A DNA stretch of 32,000 nucleotides from an uncultured archaeon (lineage in GTDB: Archaea > Iainarchaeota > Iainarchaeia > Iainarchaeales > Iainarchaeaceae). Both the position numbers and the translations under genes were made by a program. Of the stretch, positions 1,300-31,574 are shown in pieces. Under the pieces are notes generated by a model that saw only the letters and a list, made by a program, of their open reading frames with translations, did no database searches and was not told the DNA's origin. The stretch spans positions 18,495-50,494 of the forward strand of contig CAZNZM010000008.1 in the NCBI GenBank assembly GCA_964577555.1, in the 5' to 3' direction. The number at the start of each line of letters is the position of its first letter. The stretch's first letter is position 1.

Positions 1300-1826
1300 A
1301 TTTGTTGGTTTTTTACCAGCTTTTTTTGTTTTGCAAGTCAAACGGTTTTTATTGTTTTTTTTTAGTTTTTTTGGAAAGTATTTTATTTTCTTAGCTGTTT
1401 TTTTTGTGTTTTTTTTTGTCAATTTTTTTTTGTTTTTTTTTTTTGGCGGGTTGTTTTTTTTGTGGTCTTTTTTTTTGTTATTTTTTTTTGAGCCGTTTTT
1501 TTTGTCTTTTTTTTTGTGTTTTTTTTTGTCAATTTTTTTTGTTTTTTCGAACCAAATTTTTTTGTTTTAAACTTTTTTGTTTTTTTTACCAAGTTTTTTC
1601 TTTGAGGTTTTATTTTTTTGTTTTTGACATTGTTTTTTTTGGCGAGCGTTTTTTTGTCAATTTTTTTGATTTATTTTATTTTTTGTTTTTGTTGGCTTGG
1701 TTTTTTTTGTTGAGCCAATGTTGTTTTTTTTGGAAATTGTTTTTTTCTTTTTGGTTTGGATTGTCTTTTTTGCGAGCCGTTTTTTTTAGTCGGTTTATTT
1801 TCTTGGTGCTTTGATTTTTTAGCTGT
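1300..1826 (+). repeat. Strand-asymmetric oligo(T) array A with recurring GC-words. Non-coding.
   Basis: More than 35 T6-T13 runs on the + strand are separated by short G/C-containing words. A 26-nt unit GTGTTTTTTTTTGTCAATTTTTTTT occurs twice (about 1406-1431 and 1516-1540). A word family is present: GGCGGG, GAGCCG, GGCGAGCG, GAGCCAATG, TGCGAGCCG. The only ORFs are poly-Phe artefacts. Confidence 0.8.
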
Positions 1827-1916
1827 TTGCGGCAACATTTTCAATTTGTTTCCGCCACAAGATACTTTTTTTTGTTATGCTACTCTTTTTTAAGTAGTTC
1901 GCTTGTGTTTTTTTTT

Positions 1917-7945: not shown

Positions 7946-8947
7946 TCATATTTTAATTTTTTTGACTTCCACTTTTGCTTCTTCAAGCAATTCCAACGCC
8001 TCTTTTCCAAGCGGATAATCATAATTGTAAATAACACGCTTTATTCCGGCATTAATTATCATTTTACTGCAAGTTAAACAAGGGCTGTAAGTAGTATAAA
8101 TGTCAGAGTCTTTTGTTGAAATCCCGTGATACGCTGCTTGAACTATTGCGTTTTCCTCTGCATGAGAGCATCTGCATTCATCAAGTTTCGTGCCTTCTTT
8201 TGCAAATGAATTACACCTTAAACACCCGCCTTCGTTGCAATTTCTTACTCTTCGAGGAGTTCCATTATAACCTGTTGAAATAATCCTTTTTTCCCTCACT
8301 ATAACAGCCCCAATTTTTCTCTTTATGCAATTACTCCTTGTTGCTATCTCTTTTGCAATATTCATAAAATACTCGTCCCAATCAGGCCTTTTAAAATCAA
8401 CAGGCGTTTGAAGCAATACAGAATCAATTTTTTGGAATAATTCGGCAAGCGAACCATTGTTTTCAATTGTATGTCCAGCCATTGCAGCACAAACATCCAA
8501 TTGCTGACTACTGCTTTCCCCAGAAGAACTTTCAAATCTTTCCATTTTTCTAAATTCCTCAATGGTTTTAGGGTCACCTTCCCTATTTCTTTTCAATATT
8601 CTTTCAAACCTTGTTTTTTCATCAGAAATAATATTCCAAAGGTGAAAATTTCCGATTTTTTGCAATTCTTTTATTTCCTCTGGGTTGCGCAAAGAATCAA
8701 TTACATAATTTTTGTCTTTGGACATTTTGCCTACAATTCTTTTTGACAGATACCCGTTGCCATATTTTTTTCTCAATTCATTGCCTTTAGAAATCAAATT
8801 TTCCCTTGTAACAGGCAATTTTTCTTCAGCAAGAATTTCCCTGAGTTCATCAGAAAGAGAAAGATACCCAAAACTCTTTGATTTAAGGTATTCGCAAGCA
8901 GTTGTCTTGCCGGCACAATATTTTCCAGTAACTCCAATAACTATCAT
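7946..8947 (-). CDS. Fusion protein: N-terminal P-loop nucleotide/nucleoside kinase-like domain and C-terminal dCMP (deoxycytidylate) deaminase
   Basis: N-terminus: Walker A IGVTGKYCAGKTT plus a DSLRNPEE lid-like block. C-terminus: zinc motifs CSHAEENAI (H-A-E) and SPCLTCSKMI (PCxxC), and the TGYNG block of ComEB/dCMP deaminases. Start taken as ATG 8947. The track's TTG at 9019 adds an implausible leader. Confidence 0.8.
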   Translation of the reverse strand: MIVIGVTGKYCAGKTTACEYLKSKSFGYLSLSDELREILAEEKLPVTRENLISKGNELRKKYGNGYLSKRIVGKMSKDKNYVIDSLRNPEEIKELQKIGNFHLWNIISDEKTRFERILKRNREGDPKTIEEFRKMERFESSSGESSSQQLDVCAAMAGHTIENNGSLAELFQKIDSVLLQTPVDFKRPDWDEYFMNIAKEIATRSNCIKRKIGAVIVREKRIISTGYNGTPRRVRNCNEGGCLRCNSFAKEGTKLDECRCSHAEENAIVQAAYHGISTKDSDIYTTYSPCLTCSKMIINAGIKRVIYNYDYPLGKEALELLEEAKVEVKKIKI

Positions 8948-19188: not shown

Positions 19189-19390
19189 TCCCGCCTCCCG
19201 GATTTGCACCGGGGATCTTCCGGTAACCGCACAACAAACCTTGCGATTATTTTTTCCCAAAAAAGGGTTGACGCCGACAGAAAAGTGTTTTTCTGTCAAA
19301 CGCTTTTCTTTGGCTTCCGAAAAAATTTTTGTCGGAAGAAGAAAAGTGTTGAACTACAGCCGGACGCATTAGCTACTATGCTAAGGCGGG
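19189..19390 (-). tRNA. tRNA-Tyr (GUA) with a 129-nt intron at the canonical 37/38 position. Exon 1 is 19390-19354, the intron is 19353-19225, and exon 2 is 19224-19189.
   Basis: Spliced sequence: CCCGCCT-TA-GCAT-AGTAGCTA-ATGC-G-TCCGG-CTGTAGA-CCGGA-AGATC-CCCGG-TGCAAAT-CCGGG-AGGCGGG-A. C1:G72 plus A73 is the archaeal/eukaryal tRNA-Tyr identity set. The anticodon loop CU-GUA-G is interrupted by the intron before A38. No encoded CCA. Confidence 0.8.
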
Positions 19391-19502: not shown

Positions 19503-20009
19503 ATGCCTGAAACAGTGCTTTATATAATAGACCCTGAAAAATATTTCCAAGGAGTTCTTAAAATACTTGAAACTCTTAAGGGAAAAAACATTATTTACAT
19601 TTCAGCAAACAAGCCTTACAGCCACATGGTTTCCATATTAAAAAAACATGGCATTGATACTGAAAAATTCTTTTTTATAGATTGCATAACCTCGCAATTA
19701 GGTCTTCTTGCAAATGAAGAGCCATCAAATTGCATATTCATAAAAGGTCCACAAAACTTGACTGAAATAAGCATTGCAATCAACGAATGCCTTGACAAAA
19801 TGCCAGGCGAAAAGATTTTGCTAATAGATTCGATTAGTACTCTTATTTTCTATAATGATCCTGAAGTAATAGGCAAATTTTCGCATTTCTTTATTAATAG
19901 AATGCAGTTTTCTGGAATAACAACTGTAATATTGGCTCTTGAATCAGACATTAACAAGGACGTGCTTAGACAAGTTGAATCGCTTGCAGAGGAGGTAAAA
20001 AGAATATGA
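19503..20009 (+). CDS. RecA/KaiC-fold protein lacking a Walker A motif (probably an inactivated ATPase)
   Basis: The topology fits COG0467-like proteins: beta-strand NIIYISANKPY, FFIDC, and a Walker-B-like KILLIDSISTL. No GxxxxGK[ST] occurs anywhere. The stop overlaps the next gene's start (ATGA). Confidence 0.5.
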   Translation: MPETVLYIIDPEKYFQGVLKILETLKGKNIIYISANKPYSHMVSILKKHGIDTEKFFFIDCITSQLGLLANEEPSNCIFIKGPQNLTEISIAINECLDKMPGEKILLIDSISTLIFYNDPEVIGKFSHFFINRMQFSGITTVILALESDINKDVLRQVESLAEEVKRI

Positions 20010-20383
20010 ACGATACAACCATTAATTTCATTTTAGGAATAATTTCAATAATTTTTATTTTTGTTGCCAGTTTCTTTGCTTACAAAGTTTACAAATTCAA
20101 CAAGCAGGCAAAACCCTGGCTTGCAATATACTTGGGTTTTATCACCCAAGCATTATATGGCGCCTTGACCCACTTTAAAATAAATTCATATTTAAGTTCA
20201 ATAACGACAGAAAACATGAATTATATTTTGGCAATTTTATTGTTGATATCTTCAGCGTTTTTTGTATGGGGTTTTTGGAGCATGAATAAAAGCTTTGAAT
20301 CTTTTTCAGTGATACAGTCAAAGACAAAAGAAAAAATTGAGCAATTCGTAAGCAAAAACAAAAACAATTCAAAGAAAAAATAA
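20006..20383 (+). CDS. Small membrane protein (3-4 TM helices), translationally coupled to the KaiC-like gene
   Basis: Hydrophobic segments include IISIIFIFVASFFAY, WLAIYLGFITQALYGAL and ILAILLLISSAFFVWGFW. The C-terminal tail is Lys-rich. The start has a 4-nt overlap with the upstream gene. Confidence 0.55.
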   Translation: MNDTTINFILGIISIIFIFVASFFAYKVYKFNKQAKPWLAIYLGFITQALYGALTHFKINSYLSSITTENMNYILAILLLISSAFFVWGFWSMNKSFESFSVIQSKTKEKIEQFVSKNKNNSKKK

Positions 20384-20641
20384 TTTTTTTTTTGGCTTTG
20401 CAAATTTTTGCCCAAGTTTTTTGCTTGCATTTTTTTTATTTTTTGGTAAAGCTGTTTTTTTGCGAGTCATTTTTTGCGAGCCAAACATTTTTTTGTGTTT
20501 TTTTGGTTGTTGTTTTTTTTAGCTTGTTTTTTTTGATTAGTTTTGTTTTTGTAAGTAGTTGTTTTTTTGTTAGCCAAATTATTTTTTTTATTTTTTTGTT
20601 TTTTTAATGATTGTTTTTGAAGTTGTTTTTTTTGTTTTTGA
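20384..20641 (+). repeat. Strand-asymmetric oligo(T) array B with the same GC-words as arrays A and C
   Basis: T-run array containing TGCGAGTCATTTTTTGCGAGCCAAAC (20461-20486) and GTTTTTTTGTTAGCCAAATT (20561-20580). The latter is 20/20 identical to 30644-30663. The array lies in a convergent gap and continues into the Lys-rich tail codons of the PAP2 gene. Confidence 0.8.
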
Positions 20642-21616
20642 TTATGATTTTTTATTTGATTTTGGCTTTGGCATTTTTGTTTTTTTATAATTGCTTTTAT
20701 TTTCTTTTTCTTGAACAATTTGTTTAGTTTTTTGTTCCGCCGTTTTTTGGTTTTCAGTATTTTCCTGCTTTTTTGTAATGGCTTCGTATAATAAAGGATA
20801 TAAAAGAGTAATCCAGAGCCCTGCCAAAAAATAAGCTTCTGGCCCCATTGAAAAATTTTCTCCTAATAATAATATAACGCCTAATATGGCGAAGCCAAAA
20901 ATTGATTTTATTATAAATATTGATCCAGAAATTTTTTTGGTGTCAAAATTGGCTAATTTGAATGTTATTGCTCCTGCAAATAATCCTAAAAGTATTGAAG
21001 CCATTCCTATTGACCTGAAAAGCAGTGAAATTACGAGTGCTGCAATTACGAACGTAACCAGGCCTACTTCTTCAATCAGCCTTTTTTTGTCAAATCTTAT
21101 TTCTTTATAATAATCTTCAACTAAATGCATTAATCTTCCTATTGCAAAACCCAACAATGCACCTGCAAGTACGTCGCCAAGGTAATGCGCGCCAAGATAA
21201 ATTCTTGAAATCATGACAAGGATCAAAGACAAAAAACCAGCAAATTTTAATATATTTGACAATTTTGTCCAATAAAGTCCTAAAATTCCTGCAAATGTTG
21301 TGGCATGCCCTGATGGAAATGAAAAATTTGATTCAAAATCATGGTTGAATACTCTGAATTCTTCAATGGGCGGTCTTAATCTGCCTGCAAGAGGTTTAAT
21401 GATTCCAATGATCGAGGAAGTGAAAAGTATTGTTCCTGCAATCGCCATTGACTTTTTTTCTTCCCCTTTCCACCAATAAGCAGAGGCAATGATAACCCAA
21501 ACAATTGGGTGTCCCAAGTATGTTATTAAAATGAAAAACATGTCCAAGCTTGGACTTGTAAAAGACTGGACAAAATGCGAAAATAATATTTCAGGTTCAA
21601 TCGCTTCTATTGTCAT
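20642..21616 (-). CDS. PAP2-family lipid phosphate phosphatase (undecaprenyl/dolichyl-diphosphate phosphatase-like)
   Basis: All three PAP2 motifs are present: KPLAGRLRPP (KxxxxxxRP), FPSGHAT (PSGH) and SRIYLGAHYLGD (SRxxxxxHxxxD). The protein has multiple TM helices. It ends in a K/Q/N-rich tail encoded by A-rich sequence. Confidence 0.85.
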   Translation of the reverse strand: MTIEAIEPEILFSHFVQSFTSPSLDMFFILITYLGHPIVWVIIASAYWWKGEEKKSMAIAGTILFTSSIIGIIKPLAGRLRPPIEEFRVFNHDFESNFSFPSGHATTFAGILGLYWTKLSNILKFAGFLSLILVMISRIYLGAHYLGDVLAGALLGFAIGRLMHLVEDYYKEIRFDKKRLIEEVGLVTFVIAALVISLLFRSIGMASILLGLFAGAITFKLANFDTKKISGSIFIIKSIFGFAILGVILLLGENFSMGPEAYFLAGLWITLLYPLLYEAITKKQENTENQKTAEQKTKQIVQEKENKSNYKKTKMPKPKSNKKS

Positions 21617-23500: not shown

Positions 23501-23762
23501 AAAAAGAATTTCATAGATCGCTTTTGATTAGAAACTTGCAGGCAAATAATTAAAAGGCAAATAATTAAAATATAATTTTACAATTGCAATTTTGGAAGAT
23601 TTTTACAAGTTTAAACTAAAACCATTTTTACGACAATTGTCAAAAAAAAAAATAATATTTAATAACTATTTTTAGTTAAAAGATTAATTAATATTTGTTT
23701 TGTTATAAAATAAATATAAACAAATTGCCTTTTTTGGCTAACTTGTTAAACTGGTAATTGCA

Positions 23763-24707: not shown

Positions 24708-24899
24708 AAAAACCTGAAAACAGAAACAATTTCTTGATTCGTGTTAAATTAGAAATTAAATCCAAAAGAAATAAAAGCCTCGCTAAAAGTAGAAAAAAAG
24801 ATTTGTTTACCAAGGCAAAAAATTTGAATTTAAAAATTAAAAAAAGGATTGGCTCAGCGAAAAACCTGAAAAACAATGCCAATTTACCAAATATGGAAT

Positions 24900-26279: not shown

Positions 26280-29200
26280 TTAACTACTGCTGTTTTTTGA
26301 AACAATTATTGAAGCAATTATTGTTATAACTACAATTAATACAATTGCCATTCCAATTCCAGCATATACTAACAATGGTTCATAATCTTGCTTCTTTTCT
26401 ATTTCTTTACCTTCTTTTTTTACTGTTAAAACACTTTCAATAACAACATATTCTTTATTTTTTTCAATTGGCATTATATTTAACCTTGCATTATAATCAC
26501 CTAATTCAGGCTTTTCCCAAATTTCAGAAAATTTATTAATTGTTTTTTTGTTTTTTTCAATTCCTTTTAAAGTTTTTTCAGCACTAAAAACAGTTTTTCC
26601 ATTTTTTGAAATGATTATCTCCGCAATAAAATTATTTATGTCGCTTTCATGATAAAAGTCAAACAATATTTCTGCATTATCTTCTGAAAGCCATTTCAAA
26701 TTTATAAAATTCACTTCAATTTTTGGTTGAAGCAACTTCTTCTCTTCGCGTTTTTTTACTTTTATTTCAATCGACTTTTGAGCTACTAAATTTTTATTGT
26801 CATATGCTTTTACCAGCAAATTATGTTCTCCAACAGGCAATTTTTCTAAATTGAAATCAAGTGTCTTGCCATATTTTTCTCCAAATTTTTTATCCCCCAC
26901 ATAGTATTCTATTCTTTCAATTGTTTTGTCGTCTTTAGTGTCAACTTTGATTGTTATTTTTGAATCATCATATATTTCATGGTTGTTATCAGGCAAGATT
27001 ATATCAAAATTTTTTTGAATAATTTTATCTTTGTCAGGTTTAGATTTTACAATTATTTTTATTTTTTCAGCTGTGTTTTTGGAAAATTCGTCATCAATTG
27101 CAATTGCATATAATTCATTTTCACCGGTTTTTGCAATCCATTTTATTGAAAAAGGCCTTGTTGTATCAGTTCCTAAAATTTCATTTTTGTTATAAAATTC
27201 AACGATTTTTATTTGCCCATCATTGTCTCTTGCATTTGCTTCGATTAGTATTTCAGTACCTTCAATGAAAATTTCTTCATTCAAAGGCCTTGTCAAGAAT
27301 ATTGTAGGCGGTTGATTTTCCCCTAACACATTAACAATTAATGGTTCTGAAGTGGCTTGTCTACCTCTGCTGTCAGTTAGTTTTGCTACAAATTCATGTC
27401 TTCCTTTTCTCAAGTTTTGATATGTAATAGTATCAACATTATTAGAGTATTCTGCAAATTTAGTGTTATCTTTAAATATTTCAAGTTTTGAGATGGCAGA
27501 GTTTGTTAATGTGATATTTACCTTAATGATTATATTTGCAGGTTCTCTTAATTTATCTTGATTTTGAAGTGCAAGACTGATTTTAGGCTCCAGTATTTTT
27601 TCTGCTATTATAGTTATTGGTTCTGATAAATTTATTGCTCCCTTCTCATCAATTGCCCTTGCATTGATTATGTATATGCCTTCATTGTTTGGAGTCCAAA
27701 TTATTGAATATGGGCTTGTCGTGGTTTCGCTTATTTTTATTCCATTTACATAGAATTCTACTTTTGTTATGGTTCCGTCTGGGTCGTTGGCGTTTGCTGT
27801 TATGGTTATGTTTGCTGGTGTTGTGAATGTTTGTCCGTTTGTGGGTGTTGTTATGGTTATTGTTGGGTTTTGGTTTGGTGGGTTTATTGTTATTGTTGTG
27901 GTTGTGGTTGTTGTTGCTAGTTGGTTGTCTGTTGCTTTTGCTGTTATTGTGTAGGTTCCTGGTGTGTTGATTGTGTGTGTGTGGGTGTATGGTGGTGTTG
28001 TTTTTGTTGCTATTAGTGTTGTGTTGAGGTAGAATTCTACTTTTGTTATGGTTCCGTCTGGGTCGTTGGCGTTTGCTGTTATGGTTATGTTTGCTGGTGT
28101 TGTGAATGTTTGTCCGTTTGTGGGTGTTGTTATTGATATAAATGGTGGTTGGTTGCTGTTGCATGTTGGTTTCCATGTTATTTCTGTTCCTGTTTTGCAT
28201 CTTATCCAATATGCTTCGTAGTTGTTTAGTTTGAAATCTATTTTGTTTCCTTTGAAATTTTCTGAAATGTTTTCAGTCCAGAATATGATTGGCCAACTTT
28301 TTCCATAGGCGTTAGAAATTAAGTCGCAATTTGGGTTTATTCTTGATATTTCTTTTAGTACTTGTGATGCCGTGTATTTATCTCCACAGAATGGTAATCC
28401 GATTAAATTGTGTTCTTCTGTTAGTTTTACTTTTGGAGAAGTGTTTAATGTGGTTCCAGAAAATGTTAGAGTTACATCATCAAGTGCTGTAACAATAATT
28501 CCTTCTCCTGAATTGAATTTTCTTTCGGTTTCGCCTATCCATTCATTGAATTCCTTGTTATATTCTAACGTTTTATAACCTTGTCTTTCTTTGTATTTGA
28601 TAATAACATTTGCAGAAGGTGGTGTTTGGAAGATCTCGTTAATAGTTTTGTTGTCTACATTTACTGGGAAAGAAATTGCATATTCATTATTGCTTTTATT
28701 TAGTTTGATGGTTGATTGGTTTATAATCTGGTAATCCGTTCCTTTGCAATGTCCTTGAAAACATCCTTCTCTGCAGATTGTTTCATTAGCAAAACCGATT
28801 TCATCACCAATGCACTCTTTTTTAGTATTGGAGTTTTCACATATCCAACTTCCTGCATCGATTTTTGTTTGGTCTTGTGTTAAGCAACCAGGATTAGTAT
28901 AAATTATTCTAATTGTTTCGTTAGTTGGAGAGTCTTTTATTCTCATTAAAGGATCGCCAATAATTGTGTTTACTGAATAGTAATTATTTTCCTTGTATGA
29001 TTTGAGAAATGCTTCCGCTATTGTGAGTCCTGCAGCGTAGTTTGCAAAGAATTTTCCCACATCGACTACATATGTTGTGGTTGGTTCGTATATATTTCCA
29101 AATGCTGCTGAAAAACTGTTTGAGTAATTTGTTCCACCGAATGCTATTGGAGAAATTGCATCTGCTATCAAACCTTGGTTTGTTTCCCTTTTTTGATTTG

Positions 29201-30224
29201 GGGCTCCTGTCATAGTTGCAGCATTCCAACTTTCAATGCTGTTAAACACCGCTCTGTTTGATACATTACTTCTTACTTTTGGGTTTCCTGCAATCCATAA
29301 AGAGTCGTATCCTTGATGAACTCCCCAACTTGAATATACTACAAGAGGCTTGTCGTAAGATGTTTTATTCCAACGTGTACTTACTACTAAGTCTGGGTTT
29401 ATGCCGACACTTTTCATTGGTCTTCCAAACATCTCTGGTATATAAAGTTTATCTGGCATTCCGAAATAATCTACTGGCATTCCGAAATAAACAGATGAAA
29501 GGTTTGGTGCTGGTTCTTGTGCTTTGTCAATCATTTTTTTTATGTCACCAATGTTAAAACCATTGAGGTGTGAAACTGCAAATCTGAGTTTTTCATCTTT
29601 ATAACGTTCAGGATCAAAGTGTTGAACTGTAGTATCCATTTTGTAATTTTCTGGCAAAGAACGAAGAATGTAGTCTTCCAAATTGGTTGCAGTTCTCCAA
29701 TTTCCTTCATATGCAAGTAATGTTGCTGTTGAGCCAATAATTAACTTGTAATCTGAGCCGGGAATCATGTTATTGCCCGGGTATTTATTTGCTTTATCAT
29801 AAATCGCGATTGGCAGATATTTTGCTATTGCCAAATGGGTTATTTTCATTTCCGGGTGTTGATTTACATATTGGAATATTGGTTTAGCAATGTATTCAAT
29901 GAATTTGTCTCCATTCATTGATTCTTTTTTTATTCTTTCATGTGGAGGAAATACTTCGTCTGGCACGTTAAGTCCTAATGATTTGGCGCCAGGCCTTTTT
30001 AAAACGTAATAATCACAAATTTCTTTTGATTCGCTTATATTTGAATTATATATGCATAAAACGTTTTGATTTGTAGGTATTGCTGAGTAGGCAAATGGTA
30101 AAGTAGTTATTATTAAAAGAAAAATTATCCAAATTTTGGTTTTAAGTCTGGGTTCGAAGTTGTTTTGCATTTGTATTTTTTTGGGATTAATCATTATATA
30201 TATTTTTTTTTTGGGATTAATCAT
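26280..30224 (-). CDS. Giant C-terminally anchored surface protein. In order: signal peptide, TIGR03790-like N-terminal domain, Cys-rich linker, beta-rich domain, about five Ig-like (Big_7-type) repeats, and a TM anchor.
   Basis: - Signal peptide: MQNNFEPRLKTKIWIIFLLIITTLPFAYS|A.
- N-terminal region: VLCIYNSNISESKEICDYYVLKRPG...IIGDPLMRI resembles the TIGR03790 family from memory.
- Ig repeats: the pattern P.NG..F..P..I.I.A.A.D.DG.I.KVEFY occurs repeatedly.
- Anchor: C-terminal GIGMAIVLIVVITIIASIIV.
- Start: probably ATG 30170 rather than 30224 or 30194 (see findings). Confidence 0.85.
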   Translation of the reverse strand: MINPKKKIYIMINPKKIQMQNNFEPRLKTKIWIIFLLIITTLPFAYSAIPTNQNVLCIYNSNISESKEICDYYVLKRPGAKSLGLNVPDEVFPPHERIKKESMNGDKFIEYIAKPIFQYVNQHPEMKITHLAIAKYLPIAIYDKANKYPGNNMIPGSDYKLIIGSTATLLAYEGNWRTATNLEDYILRSLPENYKMDTTVQHFDPERYKDEKLRFAVSHLNGFNIGDIKKMIDKAQEPAPNLSSVYFGMPVDYFGMPDKLYIPEMFGRPMKSVGINPDLVVSTRWNKTSYDKPLVVYSSWGVHQGYDSLWIAGNPKVRSNVSNRAVFNSIESWNAATMTGAPNQKRETNQGLIADAISPIAFGGTNYSNSFSAAFGNIYEPTTTYVVDVGKFFANYAAGLTIAEAFLKSYKENNYYSVNTIIGDPLMRIKDSPTNETIRIIYTNPGCLTQDQTKIDAGSWICENSNTKKECIGDEIGFANETICREGCFQGHCKGTDYQIINQSTIKLNKSNNEYAISFPVNVDNKTINEIFQTPPSANVIIKYKERQGYKTLEYNKEFNEWIGETERKFNSGEGIIVTALDDVTLTFSGTTLNTSPKVKLTEEHNLIGLPFCGDKYTASQVLKEISRINPNCDLISNAYGKSWPIIFWTENISENFKGNKIDFKLNNYEAYWIRCKTGTEITWKPTCNSNQPPFISITTPTNGQTFTTPANITITANANDPDGTITKVEFYLNTTLIATKTTPPYTHTHTINTPGTYTITAKATDNQLATTTTTTTITINPPNQNPTITITTPTNGQTFTTPANITITANANDPDGTITKVEFYVNGIKISETTTSPYSIIWTPNNEGIYIINARAIDEKGAINLSEPITIIAEKILEPKISLALQNQDKLREPANIIIKVNITLTNSAISKLEIFKDNTKFAEYSNNVDTITYQNLRKGRHEFVAKLTDSRGRQATSEPLIVNVLGENQPPTIFLTRPLNEEIFIEGTEILIEANARDNDGQIKIVEFYNKNEILGTDTTRPFSIKWIAKTGENELYAIAIDDEFSKNTAEKIKIIVKSKPDKDKIIQKNFDIILPDNNHEIYDDSKITIKVDTKDDKTIERIEYYVGDKKFGEKYGKTLDFNLEKLPVGEHNLLVKAYDNKNLVAQKSIEIKVKKREEKKLLQPKIEVNFINLKWLSEDNAEILFDFYHESDINNFIAEIIISKNGKTVFSAEKTLKGIEKNKKTINKFSEIWEKPELGDYNARLNIMPIEKNKEYVVIESVLTVKKEGKEIEKKQDYEPLLVYAGIGMAIVLIVVITIIASIIVSKNSSS
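27751..28133 (-). repeat. Intragenic direct repeat: two 104-bp perfectly identical copies spaced 279 bp (93 codons) apart, duplicating an Ig-like domain
   Basis: 27751-27854 and 28030-28133 are identical by direct reading (TAGAATTCTACTTTTGTTATGGTTCCGTCTGGGTCGTTGGCG...GTGGGTGTTGTTAT). Both encode TTPTNGQTFTTPANITITANANDPDGTITKVEFY. Confidence 0.9.
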
Positions 30225-30422: not shown

Positions 30423-30589
30423 AACTTTTGCGAGTCCCAGGTTGTGTAGAAATCATGTTTGCTTTTTGTGTAAGGCTTATTTTTTTGTCAAAAAGTTTTT
30501 TTGTTGCTTTATAAATAATTTCTACATGGTCAGAGTCGGAAAACGCGTGTATTCAAAGATTTTGATTTAGTGCAAGTATCTTATATTTT

Positions 30590-30788
30590 TTCGTAAGCTA
30601 TTTTTTATTTGATTTTTTTTGTTTTTGCGAGCCGAATTGTCGTGTTTTTTTGTTAGCCAAATTTGTTTTTCTTATTTTGTGATTTTTATTTTTTTGTTTG
30701 TTTTTTTGCGCGCCATTTTTTTAGCAAAACTTTTTTTGTCATATTTTTTTGATATTTTTTTAATTGGAATTTGTTTTTTGTAGTATTT
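30590..30788 (+). repeat. Strand-asymmetric oligo(T) array C with the same GC-words as arrays A and B
   Basis: T-run array containing GTTTTTGCGAGCCGAATTGTCG (30621-30642), GTTTTTTTGTTAGCCAAATT (30644-30663) and TTTTTTTGCGCGCCATTTTTTT (30701-30720). It directly abuts the stop codon of the lipoprotein gene. Confidence 0.8.
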
Positions 30789-31574
30789 TTACTTTTTAAT
30801 TATTTTGAGTATTACCATTCCAATTATTGGAATCGTGATAATTCCTATTGCAATAATTGATAATATTATAATTATTCCAAAGTTAATATCAAATCCTTCA
30901 AAATTTATATTTAGGGTGTTTCCAAAATCAAAGCCGGTTTCTTCTGAAATTATTTCTATGTCTGATTTTAGTTTTTGTTCTTCTTGGATAAAATCAATTA
31001 CGACGCTTTTTCCGTCTTCCGATATTTTTCCTGCATTTGTTGATATTATTTTTCCCGGCATTTTAATGGTCAAATTGATTTCCATTCCAGTCATTTTTAT
31101 CTTTTCAGGCGTTAATTCCATGTTGTTTTCTGCTTCTTTTTGCTCTTTATTATAAGCTTTTAACGTGAATTTGTATTTTTTAGGATTCGCCTTTTCATCA
31201 ACAGTGAATGAATCGCTGAAATCCACGTTTTTCCATGCCAATTTTACATAGTCTTCAACAGCTGTGCATTCCGCTTCTGACGGATCCAATTTTATTTTTC
31301 CAGGAAGAACTCCTGTCCCGCTTTCTTTGTAATCTTTATTTTGTGCTTTAATTGTTTCACATATGTTTTCTTTTTTGTATTTTTCTTCAAAATCCCCTTC
31401 CTGGTTTTCCATGTTTTTGATTGCTTCAACAAATTTTTTTATGTCTGTTGTTATTTCAACATTGCCTTTTCCATCTTTACCTATTTCGTATTTTAAATTC
31501 ATTTTTATGCAACCAGACAAAGAAAAAGTCAATAGTATTAAAATGGCGACAAATAAGACTTTTGTTTTTTGCAT
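30789..31574 (-). CDS. Lipoprotein-like surface protein with a C-terminal TM anchor
   Basis: From ATG 31574 the product begins MQKTKVLFVAILILLTFSLSGC (lipobox LSGC). A hydrophilic K/E-rich domain follows. The C-terminus is the helix FGIIIILSIIAIGIITIPIIGMVILKIIKK. The track's longer N-terminus (KYKYKYK) is probably not translated. Confidence 0.6.
   Translation of the reverse strand: MQKTKVLFVAILILLTFSLSGCIKMNLKYEIGKDGKGNVEITTDIKKFVEAIKNMENQEGDFEEKYKKENICETIKAQNKDYKESGTGVLPGKIKLDPSEAECTAVEDYVKLAWKNVDFSDSFTVDEKANPKKYKFTLKAYNKEQKEAENNMELTPEKIKMTGMEINLTIKMPGKIISTNAGKISEDGKSVVIDFIQEEQKLKSDIEIISEETGFDFGNTLNINFEGFDINFGIIIILSIIAIGIITIPIIGMVILKIIKK

Follow-up and report, generated by a model that had tools for sequence, protein, structure and literature searches.

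Polar oligo(T) arrays between the genes of an uncultured Iainarchaeales archaeon

The 32,000-nucleotide stretch analysed here (the window; contig C8, positions 18495–50494) belongs to the 979 kb genome of an uncultured archaeon of the Iainarchaeales, which is assembled in 15 contigs with a GC content of 34% and a completeness of 95.5%. It contains an array of oligo(T) runs that fills the convergent gap between a small membrane protein gene on the plus strand (stop at 20383) and a gene for a PAP2-family phosphatase on the minus strand (stop at 20642), both of which end where the first-pass annotation of this sequence had placed them. Together with the DNA that encodes the C-terminal tail of the PAP2 protein (20384–20779 in all), the array is probably one member of a lineage-restricted, non-coding and strand-polar repeat family that resembles a dispersed satellite and evolves in concert.

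The array and the end of the PAP2 gene

The untranslated part of the array contains 19 T-runs of at least 5 nucleotides (nt), 12 of them of at least 7, and is composed of T 0.64, A 0.14, G 0.16 and C 0.07. The first run, a T10 that starts at 20384, directly abuts the TAA stop codon of the plus-strand gene. One canonical core is present (GCGAGCC, at 20476) along with the variants GCGAGTC and GTTAGCC, the latter being a rare variant in the family; a 26-mer, TGCGAGTCATTTTTTGCGAGCCAAAC, is located at 20461. The first-pass annotation had drawn attention to words that the array shares with distant places in the window, and all of them were found at or near the positions given there, in numbers far above chance. 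The word TTTTTGCGAGCC occurs three times in the window (1767, 20471 and 30622) against an expectation of 0.02, and GTTAGCCAAA also three times (20569 and 30652 on the plus strand, 23733 on the minus strand) against 0.17, a count that none of 100 shuffles reached. The 20-mer GTTTTTTTGTTAGCCAAATT, which might have turned out to be common, has only two copies in the whole genome (20561 and 30644). The third copy of GTTAGCCAAA does exist, although it lies at 23733–23742, some 12 nt away from the interval first proposed for it (~23745–23757), and its description as inverted was wrong. At this site the plus strand reads TTTTTTGGCTAAC, that is, a T-run followed by a G-initial word in the usual polarity, and sequences of this form were also found within arrays on contigs C2 and C3; it is therefore a solitary unit and not an inverted copy.

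A metagenome record (L142, JGI sample 3300043177) differs from the window by one base in 6605 and carries the array with all homopolymer lengths identical. Since this is a separate record, even if possibly derived from the same source sample, an assembly or homopolymer artefact is very unlikely. In the same record, the annotation pipeline called two lysine-rich "genes" of 83 and 39 residues at 529–780 and 759–878, which correspond to ~20467–20718 of the window and the adjoining stretch.

The assignment of the minus-strand gene is clear: it matches Pfam PF01569 (E 7.8e-19; 68.2 bits versus a cutoff of 27.2), shows the motifs KxxxxxxRP, PSGH and SRxxxxxHxxxD, and shares with 18 homologs the invariant residues R81, P82, P101, S102, H104, S137, R138, H144 and D148. 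The composition of its 3' end is that of the array. The DNA of the tail (20645–20779) has T 0.63, A 0.13, G 0.14 and C 0.10, versus T 0.30 in the rest of the gene, and thus the T-rich texture crosses the PAP2 stop codon, as had been proposed, with its boundary at ~20780–20790, where the last helix ends. The tail and the array form a single compositional block of 397 nt. The suggestion that the tail is lineage-specific and variable in length was also borne out, given that most homologs (284–291 residues) end about 10 residues past the last helix, and that tails, where present, vary in length and sequence. On the A-rich strand of this region all three frames are long and open, the +1 frame over 110 codons, so that indels in the A-runs would change the length of the tail freely; the PAP2 frame itself runs about 45 codons (~135 bases) into DNA of array composition because stop codons are rare on this strand. 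The closest available relative (L003, JGI 3300035183), whose PAP2 protein is 81% identical, has a 1-nt indel in the tail, after which the alignable DNA CAATTGTTCA[A/G]GAAAAAGAAAA is read as IQLFRKKKTKSS* versus QIVQEKENKS... in the window. Homologous DNA is thus read in another frame, revealing that the distal tail is under no amino-acid constraint.

A repeat family spread through the genome

Using a threshold of 63% T and a minimal length of 100 nt, 253 arrays were detected in the genome, which add up to 62.7 kb (6.4% of the genome) with an overall composition of A.13, C.08, G.14 and T.65. From 232 aligned copies, the consensus of the unit is T7-8 (G)G[C/T][G/A]AGCC[A/G] T6-7, with T-rich conserved flanks, and the spacers between T-runs begin with G. 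The core GCGAGCC appears 82 times within arrays versus 0.5 in shuffles of the spacer letters, its density being 1.31 per kb in arrays and 0.03 per kb elsewhere, and GAGCC is oriented forward relative to the T-runs in 209 cases and in reverse in 4. These counts confirm that the words shared within the window mark a real family and are not a product of chance. Likewise, TTTTTGCGAGCC has 45 copies in the genome, 43 of them in or near arrays, and the 18-mer TTTTTGYGAGCCRWTTTT has 76 copies, none of them read backwards, and none at all in 30 relatives, four of which belong to the same genus. A metagenome-wide scan for this 18-mer returned, among the ~80 of 120 stretches listed, only single matches from unrelated environments, and is uninformative regarding its distribution. 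The lengths of the T-runs in arrays are distributed as follows: 747 of 5 nt, 503 of 6, 893 of 7, 1047 of 8, 357 of 9, 55 of 10, and 12 of at least 11.

Two genomes of the same genus, G001 and G002, also contain co-oriented T-run arrays with G-initial spacers (L143–L147 on contigs C2, C8 and C9 of G002; L148 and L149 on contigs C5 and C45 of G001); these carry other words and lack the GYGAGCC core. Two further genomes, G003 and G004, have essentially no such arrays, and the PAP2 locus of G003 has a GC content of 51%. Within the genus, polar T-run arrays thus characterise the members of low GC content; the GYGAGCC word is a passenger at the level of the species. We classify the family as a new variety within the dispersed intergenic repeats, a known kind of element.

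The features of the window are listed in Table 1. Of its other arrays, the one in the divergent gap contains a 55-nt block 100% identical to C4:2816–2870 and one of 67 nt with 95.5% identity to another C8 array, located upstream of the window (contig positions 8071–8137). All five strong arrays of contig C8 are co-oriented, and one weak array is opposite. Elsewhere in the assembly, about 10 contig ends stop inside arrays (both ends of C1, C4 and C12, and one end each of C2, C6, C10 and C14), from which it follows that the arrays break the assembly; 183 30-mers are common to an internal array (C1:76487–77402) and the array at the start of C7.

Table 1. Position and strand of the features of the window considered in this work
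Feature	Positions	Strand	Basis or context
Two-gene unit: KaiC-like 168-residue protein and 125-residue membrane protein	19503..20383	+	gene calls, statistics of T-sense genes
Untranslated part of the oligo(T) array	20384..20641	+	T-runs, cores, composition
Family core word TTTTTGCGAGCC	20471..20482	+	counts in window and genome, position matrix of 232 copies
Private 20-mer GTTTTTTTGTTAGCCAAATT	20561..20580	+	common only to 30644–30663, 10 kb apart
PAP2 C-terminal tail (KKQENTENQKTAEQKTKQIVQEKENKSNYKKTKMPKPKSNKKS) and stop codon	20642..20779	-	array-like composition, comparison of homologs
Conserved core of the PAP2-family membrane phosphatase	20780..21616	-	PF01569; 213 homologs; invariant PSGH, SRxYxGxH
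Solitary unit TTTTTTGGCTAAC	23727..23742	+	GTTAGCCAAA first described as inverted
First array, in divergent gap	1300..1830	+	shared blocks
Small degenerate array of opposite polarity (A-rich on plus strand)	24730..24890	-	between tRNA-Met and RpiA-like gene
Third array, between two minus-strand genes	30560..30790	+	comparison with L003

The arrays are irregular and do not look like true tandem repeats. Tandem Repeats Finder detected weak periods of 14–17 in the array beside PAP2, and the periods were weak overall (8–21 nt, with 64–88% matches); the spacing of the units is broad, with a mode at 16 nt. No periodicity of 10–11 nt was observed in this spacing, which rules out a helical phasing of T-tracts as in curved DNA. 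A structured RNA or a known RNA family was also ruled out: neither strand of the array folds beyond its shuffles (z-scores of -1.5 and -1.0), and a search of 3 kb against Rfam found nothing in the array and a single weak match outside it, far under the gathering score. Mobility of the REP/RAYT type was discarded given that there are no hairpins and that a Y1/RAYT transposase (PF01797) was not found in this 95.5%-complete genome, in a search whose controls were positive.

Insertion, turnover and rearrangement

Arrays enlarge the gaps in which they reside. The medians of the intergenic gaps are 10–25 nt without an array and ~355 nt with one. The four orientation classes of gaps are all occupied, with an enrichment in the convergent class (31% versus 17% of the divergent gaps, p = 0.004). 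At the PAP2 locus, the orthologous convergent gap measures 5 nt in a metagenome homolog (L004) and ~15–30 nt in a locus of the same-genus genome G002 (L019); the 258-nt array is therefore a lineage-specific insertion, and it inflated a gap that was ancestrally of 5–30 nt.

Arrays of the same genome resemble each other far more than their unit composition requires, since they have 1650 30-mers in common versus 89 in a control in which the units were permuted. A comparison with L003 gives the opposite picture. Its arrays occupy the same three positions as those of the window and the flanks are 83–87% identical; nevertheless, the arrays align no better than any two arrays, and the one beside PAP2 is 258 nt long in the window versus ~650 nt in L003. 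Similarly, the position of the third array is kept in L003 (6820–7032) and its sequence is not. From these sequence comparisons, the pattern is one of apparent concerted evolution within the genome and fast divergence between genomes. Arrays may grow and shrink through slippage, and blocks of several units may be exchanged among them via ectopic copying, which would leave the arrays alike within a genome and unalignable between species.

The arrays may also act as substrates or breakpoints for rearrangements. The segment 20383–24799 of the window (4.4 kb, from PAP2 to tRNA-Met) is inverted in L003 (217–4743), and both breakpoints fall at arrays: one at the edge of the array beside PAP2, and the other, the right-hand one (between ~24799 and 24832), inside the small array of opposite polarity. 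In relatives without the array, PAP2 and the membrane protein gene remain convergent, and thus the gene order of the window is ancestral and that of L003 is derived.

Other differences in gene content were observed in the vicinity. The gene for a 1314-residue surface protein (26280–30224) is absent from L003, where ~240 nt are found instead. In most relatives at the family level (L010, L011 and L013–L016) an intron-containing tRNA-Tyr gene (CCCCCCTTAGCTTAGTAGCTAAAGCGTCCGGCTGTAG...) directly follows PAP2; in the window this gene is located at 19189–19390, upstream of the KaiC-like operon. In the window lineage, the KaiC-like and membrane protein gene pair appears to sit between two genes that were ancestrally adjacent.

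Orientation, transcription and the possible role of the arrays

The most prominent feature of the family is its polarity. Within contigs, 250 of the 253 arrays share the majority orientation and 3 are opposite; in the four polarity exceptions that were inspected there was no consistent rule of acting as terminators. To relate this polarity to the composition of the strands, the skew (T-A)/(T+A) was measured at four-fold sites of genes of at least 250 residues, and two regimes were found. In C1b and C2–C4 (~440 kb) the skew is +0.54 to +0.61, and 58–61% of the four-fold sites are T on the array T strand, whichever the direction of the gene. In C1a, C5–C8, C10 and C12 (~450 kb, about half of the assembly) it is only +0.02 to +0.03, with +0.05 for C8 itself; the unskewed part of C1 lies before 125 kb and the skewed part beyond 149 kb. 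As T-rich as the others, the arrays of the unskewed regime are longer and contain more cores (4.5 versus 2.9 per kb), and 55 of 57 follow the orientation of their contig, as do about 92 of their 98 cores. Contig C6, for example, has no gene-strand bias (34+/29-) and its arrays are still oriented 14:0. Contig C5 of G001 also has arrays without background skew, and G002 is extremely skewed, with a four-fold T of ~0.8 on one strand irrespective of how the genes are oriented. Local mutation pressure is therefore insufficient to explain the orientation of the arrays in the part of the genome to which the window belongs; candidate explanations are selection, or a replication-linked copying that depends on orientation. 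Relative to the T-array strand, the GC skew has opposite signs in the two regimes (+0.24 versus -0.13), and for this reason the leading and lagging strands were left unassigned.

Only one flip of polarity occurs within a contig, at ~149 kb of C1, and it coincides with the change of compositional regime. This site (C1:147,900–150,300; L021) contains the only gene for a tyrosine recombinase of Xer size in the genome, a 420-nt gap that is not an array, and a PRC-barrel gene. The gap includes one ORB-like word (AGTGGAACTAAAGGGGGT). Searches of the site with general ORB and dif consensus sequences, which provide leads only, revealed neither a palindrome resembling dif nor convincing repeats. The two cdc6 genes were considered as polarity switches and ruled out, because no flip occurs at either of them.

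The polarity also has consequences for the neighbouring genes. Locally, the unit at 19503–20383 is the only transcript that would read the array as U-tracts, namely the T10 after its stop codon and 18 further runs of at least 5, and the array on the plus strand would provide this operon with a strong intrinsic termination signal, assisted by aCPSF1; a beta-CASP protein of 639 residues, the size of aCPSF1, is encoded in the genome. In Methanococcus, termination was reported to be most effective, and aCPSF1 binding highest, with two or more U4 tracts (PMC8716108). The array may thus reasonably be taken as the terminator of the plus-strand operon, which has at least two runs of at least 4 T just past its stop codon. 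PAP2, on the minus strand, reads oligo(A) and finds no U-tract for ~260 nt. The same asymmetry holds throughout the genome: T-sense genes beside arrays have their first run of at least five T (T5+) at a median of 6 nt after the stop codon (within 30 nt for 83% of them), whereas for A-sense genes, which account for 95 of the 154 array-adjacent 3' ends, the median is 426 nt. In the absence of an array the corresponding medians are 33 nt for genes on the T-array strand and 122 nt for those on the A-array strand. The two strands thus appear to have systematically different termination signals.

These data bear on several alternative explanations. It could be argued that the array encodes protein, either as a frameshifted continuation of PAP2 or because the 83-residue lysine-rich open reading frame (ORF) at 20467–20718 is a real gene; the +1 frame is open over 110 codons and the annotation pipeline did call genes of 83 and 39 residues inside the array on L142. 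This seems hardly credible, given that a sequence of this composition is expected to have open frames (they span 0.72 of the array length versus 0.61 in shuffles), the units lack three-base periodicity (834:874:909 for the unit lengths by remainder modulo 3), the orthologous gaps of relatives measure only 5–30 nt, and L003 differs through indels all along. The two ORFs are probably composition-driven open frames and false gene calls, and similar false lysine-rich calls are likely at many other arrays. The possibility that the arrays were selected as transcription terminators, as stacked U-tracts that insulate transcription units and, in the window, terminate the 19503–20383 operon, agrees with the T10 next to the stop codon, the short distances of the T-sense genes, the enrichment in convergent gaps, the presence of a protein of aCPSF1 size, and the increase of efficacy with the number of U-tracts (PMC8716108). 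As a general explanation it is nevertheless doubtful. A-sense genes have no U-tract for a median of 426 nt, and for this reason termination is not the general purpose of the arrays; in addition, two tracts suffice in the published system (PMC8716108) and arrays have 10–50, divergent gaps, which contain promoters, are filled too, and orientation follows the contig and not the gene (250:3).

The remaining two alternatives concern the polarity itself. Co-orientation could simply follow from mutation that favours T on one strand throughout the chromosome. In composition the arrays match the T strand of the skewed contigs at four-fold positions (A.15, C.08, G.16, T.61), they are densest where the skew is strongest, and G002 combines its high four-fold T with many T-run arrays. 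We consider this unlikely, because in the nearly unskewed ~450 kb that include the window (+0.02 to +0.05) arrays and cores are co-oriented all the same, and the arrays are cleaner there, not decayed; besides, T-run lengths are not geometric, and contig C5 of G001 likewise has arrays without skew. On the other hand, the arrays, or their GYGAGCC core, could be chromosome-polarity signals whose orientation is actively maintained, kept or copied one way relative to replication or segregation and flipping at an Xer-associated site. On this view they would correspond to KOPS, ASPS or Chi in an archaeal, intergenic and array-like form, or else serve the replication fork as strand-specific sites of priming or termination, and their U-tract and lysine-tail effects on the genes nearby would be secondary. 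The 250:3 polarity is independent of gene direction and local skew, core density is ~1 per 4 kb, the only within-contig flip lies at the only Xer-sized recombinase gene, and polarised words that flip at dif have been documented in archaea (PMC2958812). This proposal is also improbable: the words are confined to intergenic arrays, unlike KOPS and Chi, which are spread through genes; the core is absent from same-genus relatives, whose T-run arrays have other words; neither a dif-like site nor more than one ORB-like element was found; and one switch next to one recombinase gene is a single coincidence in an assembly of unordered contigs.

We favour the reading of the arrays as a satellite-like family that evolves in concert, against which several observations weigh. 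The exchange of blocks is a mechanism deduced from the sharing of sequence. All three comparable array positions are conserved with a relative that has diverged by ~17%, 6.4% of a reduced genome of 1 Mb is much for pure filler, and near-perfect polarity persists without any background skew; conservation of position and polarity without skew would fit a selected function. Moreover, T-run lengths peak at 7–8 and collapse above 9, which neither composition alone nor open-ended slippage predicts; this peak, with a ceiling near 9–10, suggests a length-dependent balance of slippage or selection against longer runs. 

As for the capture of the PAP2 tail, basic K/R-rich tails of 20–50 residues are also found in the same-genus loci L012 (51% GC), L018 and L019, and in L004 (48% GC, lineage not established), all of them array-free at the site; these array-free homologs end in K/R clusters such as KKKSRRK, KKKSGRQKRKK and KNKKIKNK, and it follows that a basic tail predates the array. 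Across the genome, only 18 of 486 genes on the A strand have an A-rich tail of at least 20 codons, that of PAP2 being the second longest.

The idea put forward in the first-pass annotation, that arrays can be captured as lysine-rich tails through stop-codon drift, is accordingly plausible for the distal part of the PAP2 tail and does not describe a common fate of arrays. A conserved equivalent tail in unrelated archaea would have spoken against it; what was found comes close, since relatives do possess basic tails, but these are unalignable and do not come from unrelated archaea. A short basic cytoplasmic tail may have been ancestral to the clade, its distal part having merged with the array in the window lineage and drifting with it. 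This distal part can be regarded, partly from what is shown here and partly from what we infer, as repeat DNA that is in effect translated and that changes through indels.

The family shares traits with several known systems. Its resemblance to the archaeal oligo(U) terminators that work together with aCPSF1 (FttA) lies in the presence of several sense-strand runs of at least 4 T right after a stop codon and of an aCPSF1-size beta-CASP protein; the differences are that the array has 19 tracts over 258 nt (and others extend up to ~950 nt) where two tracts suffice (PMC8716108), that most array-adjacent genes read oligo(A), that orientation is set per chromosome region and not per gene, and that a specific GYGAGCC word recurs between the tracts. 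The family is similar to REP/BIME, BOX and ERIC elements in its short units, variable intergenic arrays, hundreds of copies, absence from near relatives and association with rearrangements; however, it has no palindrome or hairpin and no RAYT/Y1 transposase, and it keeps a single orientation whereas REP/BIME alternate. KOPS and Chi, both 8-mers, occur dispersed within genes. The words of the arrays, in turn, belong to units of 15–25 nt clustered in intergenic arrays and are species-specific, the core being concentrated there as described above, and we know of no translocase or nuclease partner for them. Nevertheless, they resemble KOPS, Chi and ASPS, the last of which are polarised 4-mers of archaea (Cortez et al. 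2010, PMC2958812), in that short words show near-complete polarity over hundreds of kb, a replichore-scale distance (209:4 for GAGCC), and perhaps in that the flip adjoins a gene for an Xer-type recombinase. With replication-associated strand asymmetry, as in the G+T-rich strand of Borrelia or of mitochondria, the arrays have in common that their composition equals the one shown by neutral sites of the T-rich strand within the skewed half of the genome, and that their density tracks the skew; they differ in that the neutral sites of the window are unskewed and the arrays still polar, and in their peaked run lengths. Lastly, the PAP2 tail recalls C-terminal extensions caused by the loss or shift of a stop codon, in view of its flank-like composition with all frames open and of the 1-nt indel that alters its sequence and length in L003; the difference is that relatives lacking the array have a basic tail too, so that only the distal part looks captured, and such tails are rare among array-adjacent genes.

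In practical terms, the arrays break assemblies, seed false lysine-rich ORF calls and, in at least one case, delimit an inversion that distinguishes close relatives, and the C-terminal tails of array-adjacent genes are unreliable as conserved features. The array and the PAP2 tail provide a small and clean case in which non-coding repeat DNA and a protein terminus form one sequence continuum. DPANN genomes are among the most compact known, and it is puzzling that one of them spends 6% of its DNA on one-way arrays. Since the polarity persists in regions whose neutral sites have no skew, a whole-strand mutation bias is removed as its cause there, and the question arises of what sets chromosome-scale orientation in this archaeon, which to our knowledge has neither FtsK nor a known Chi. 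This skew-independent polarity is the part of the finding that is worth following.

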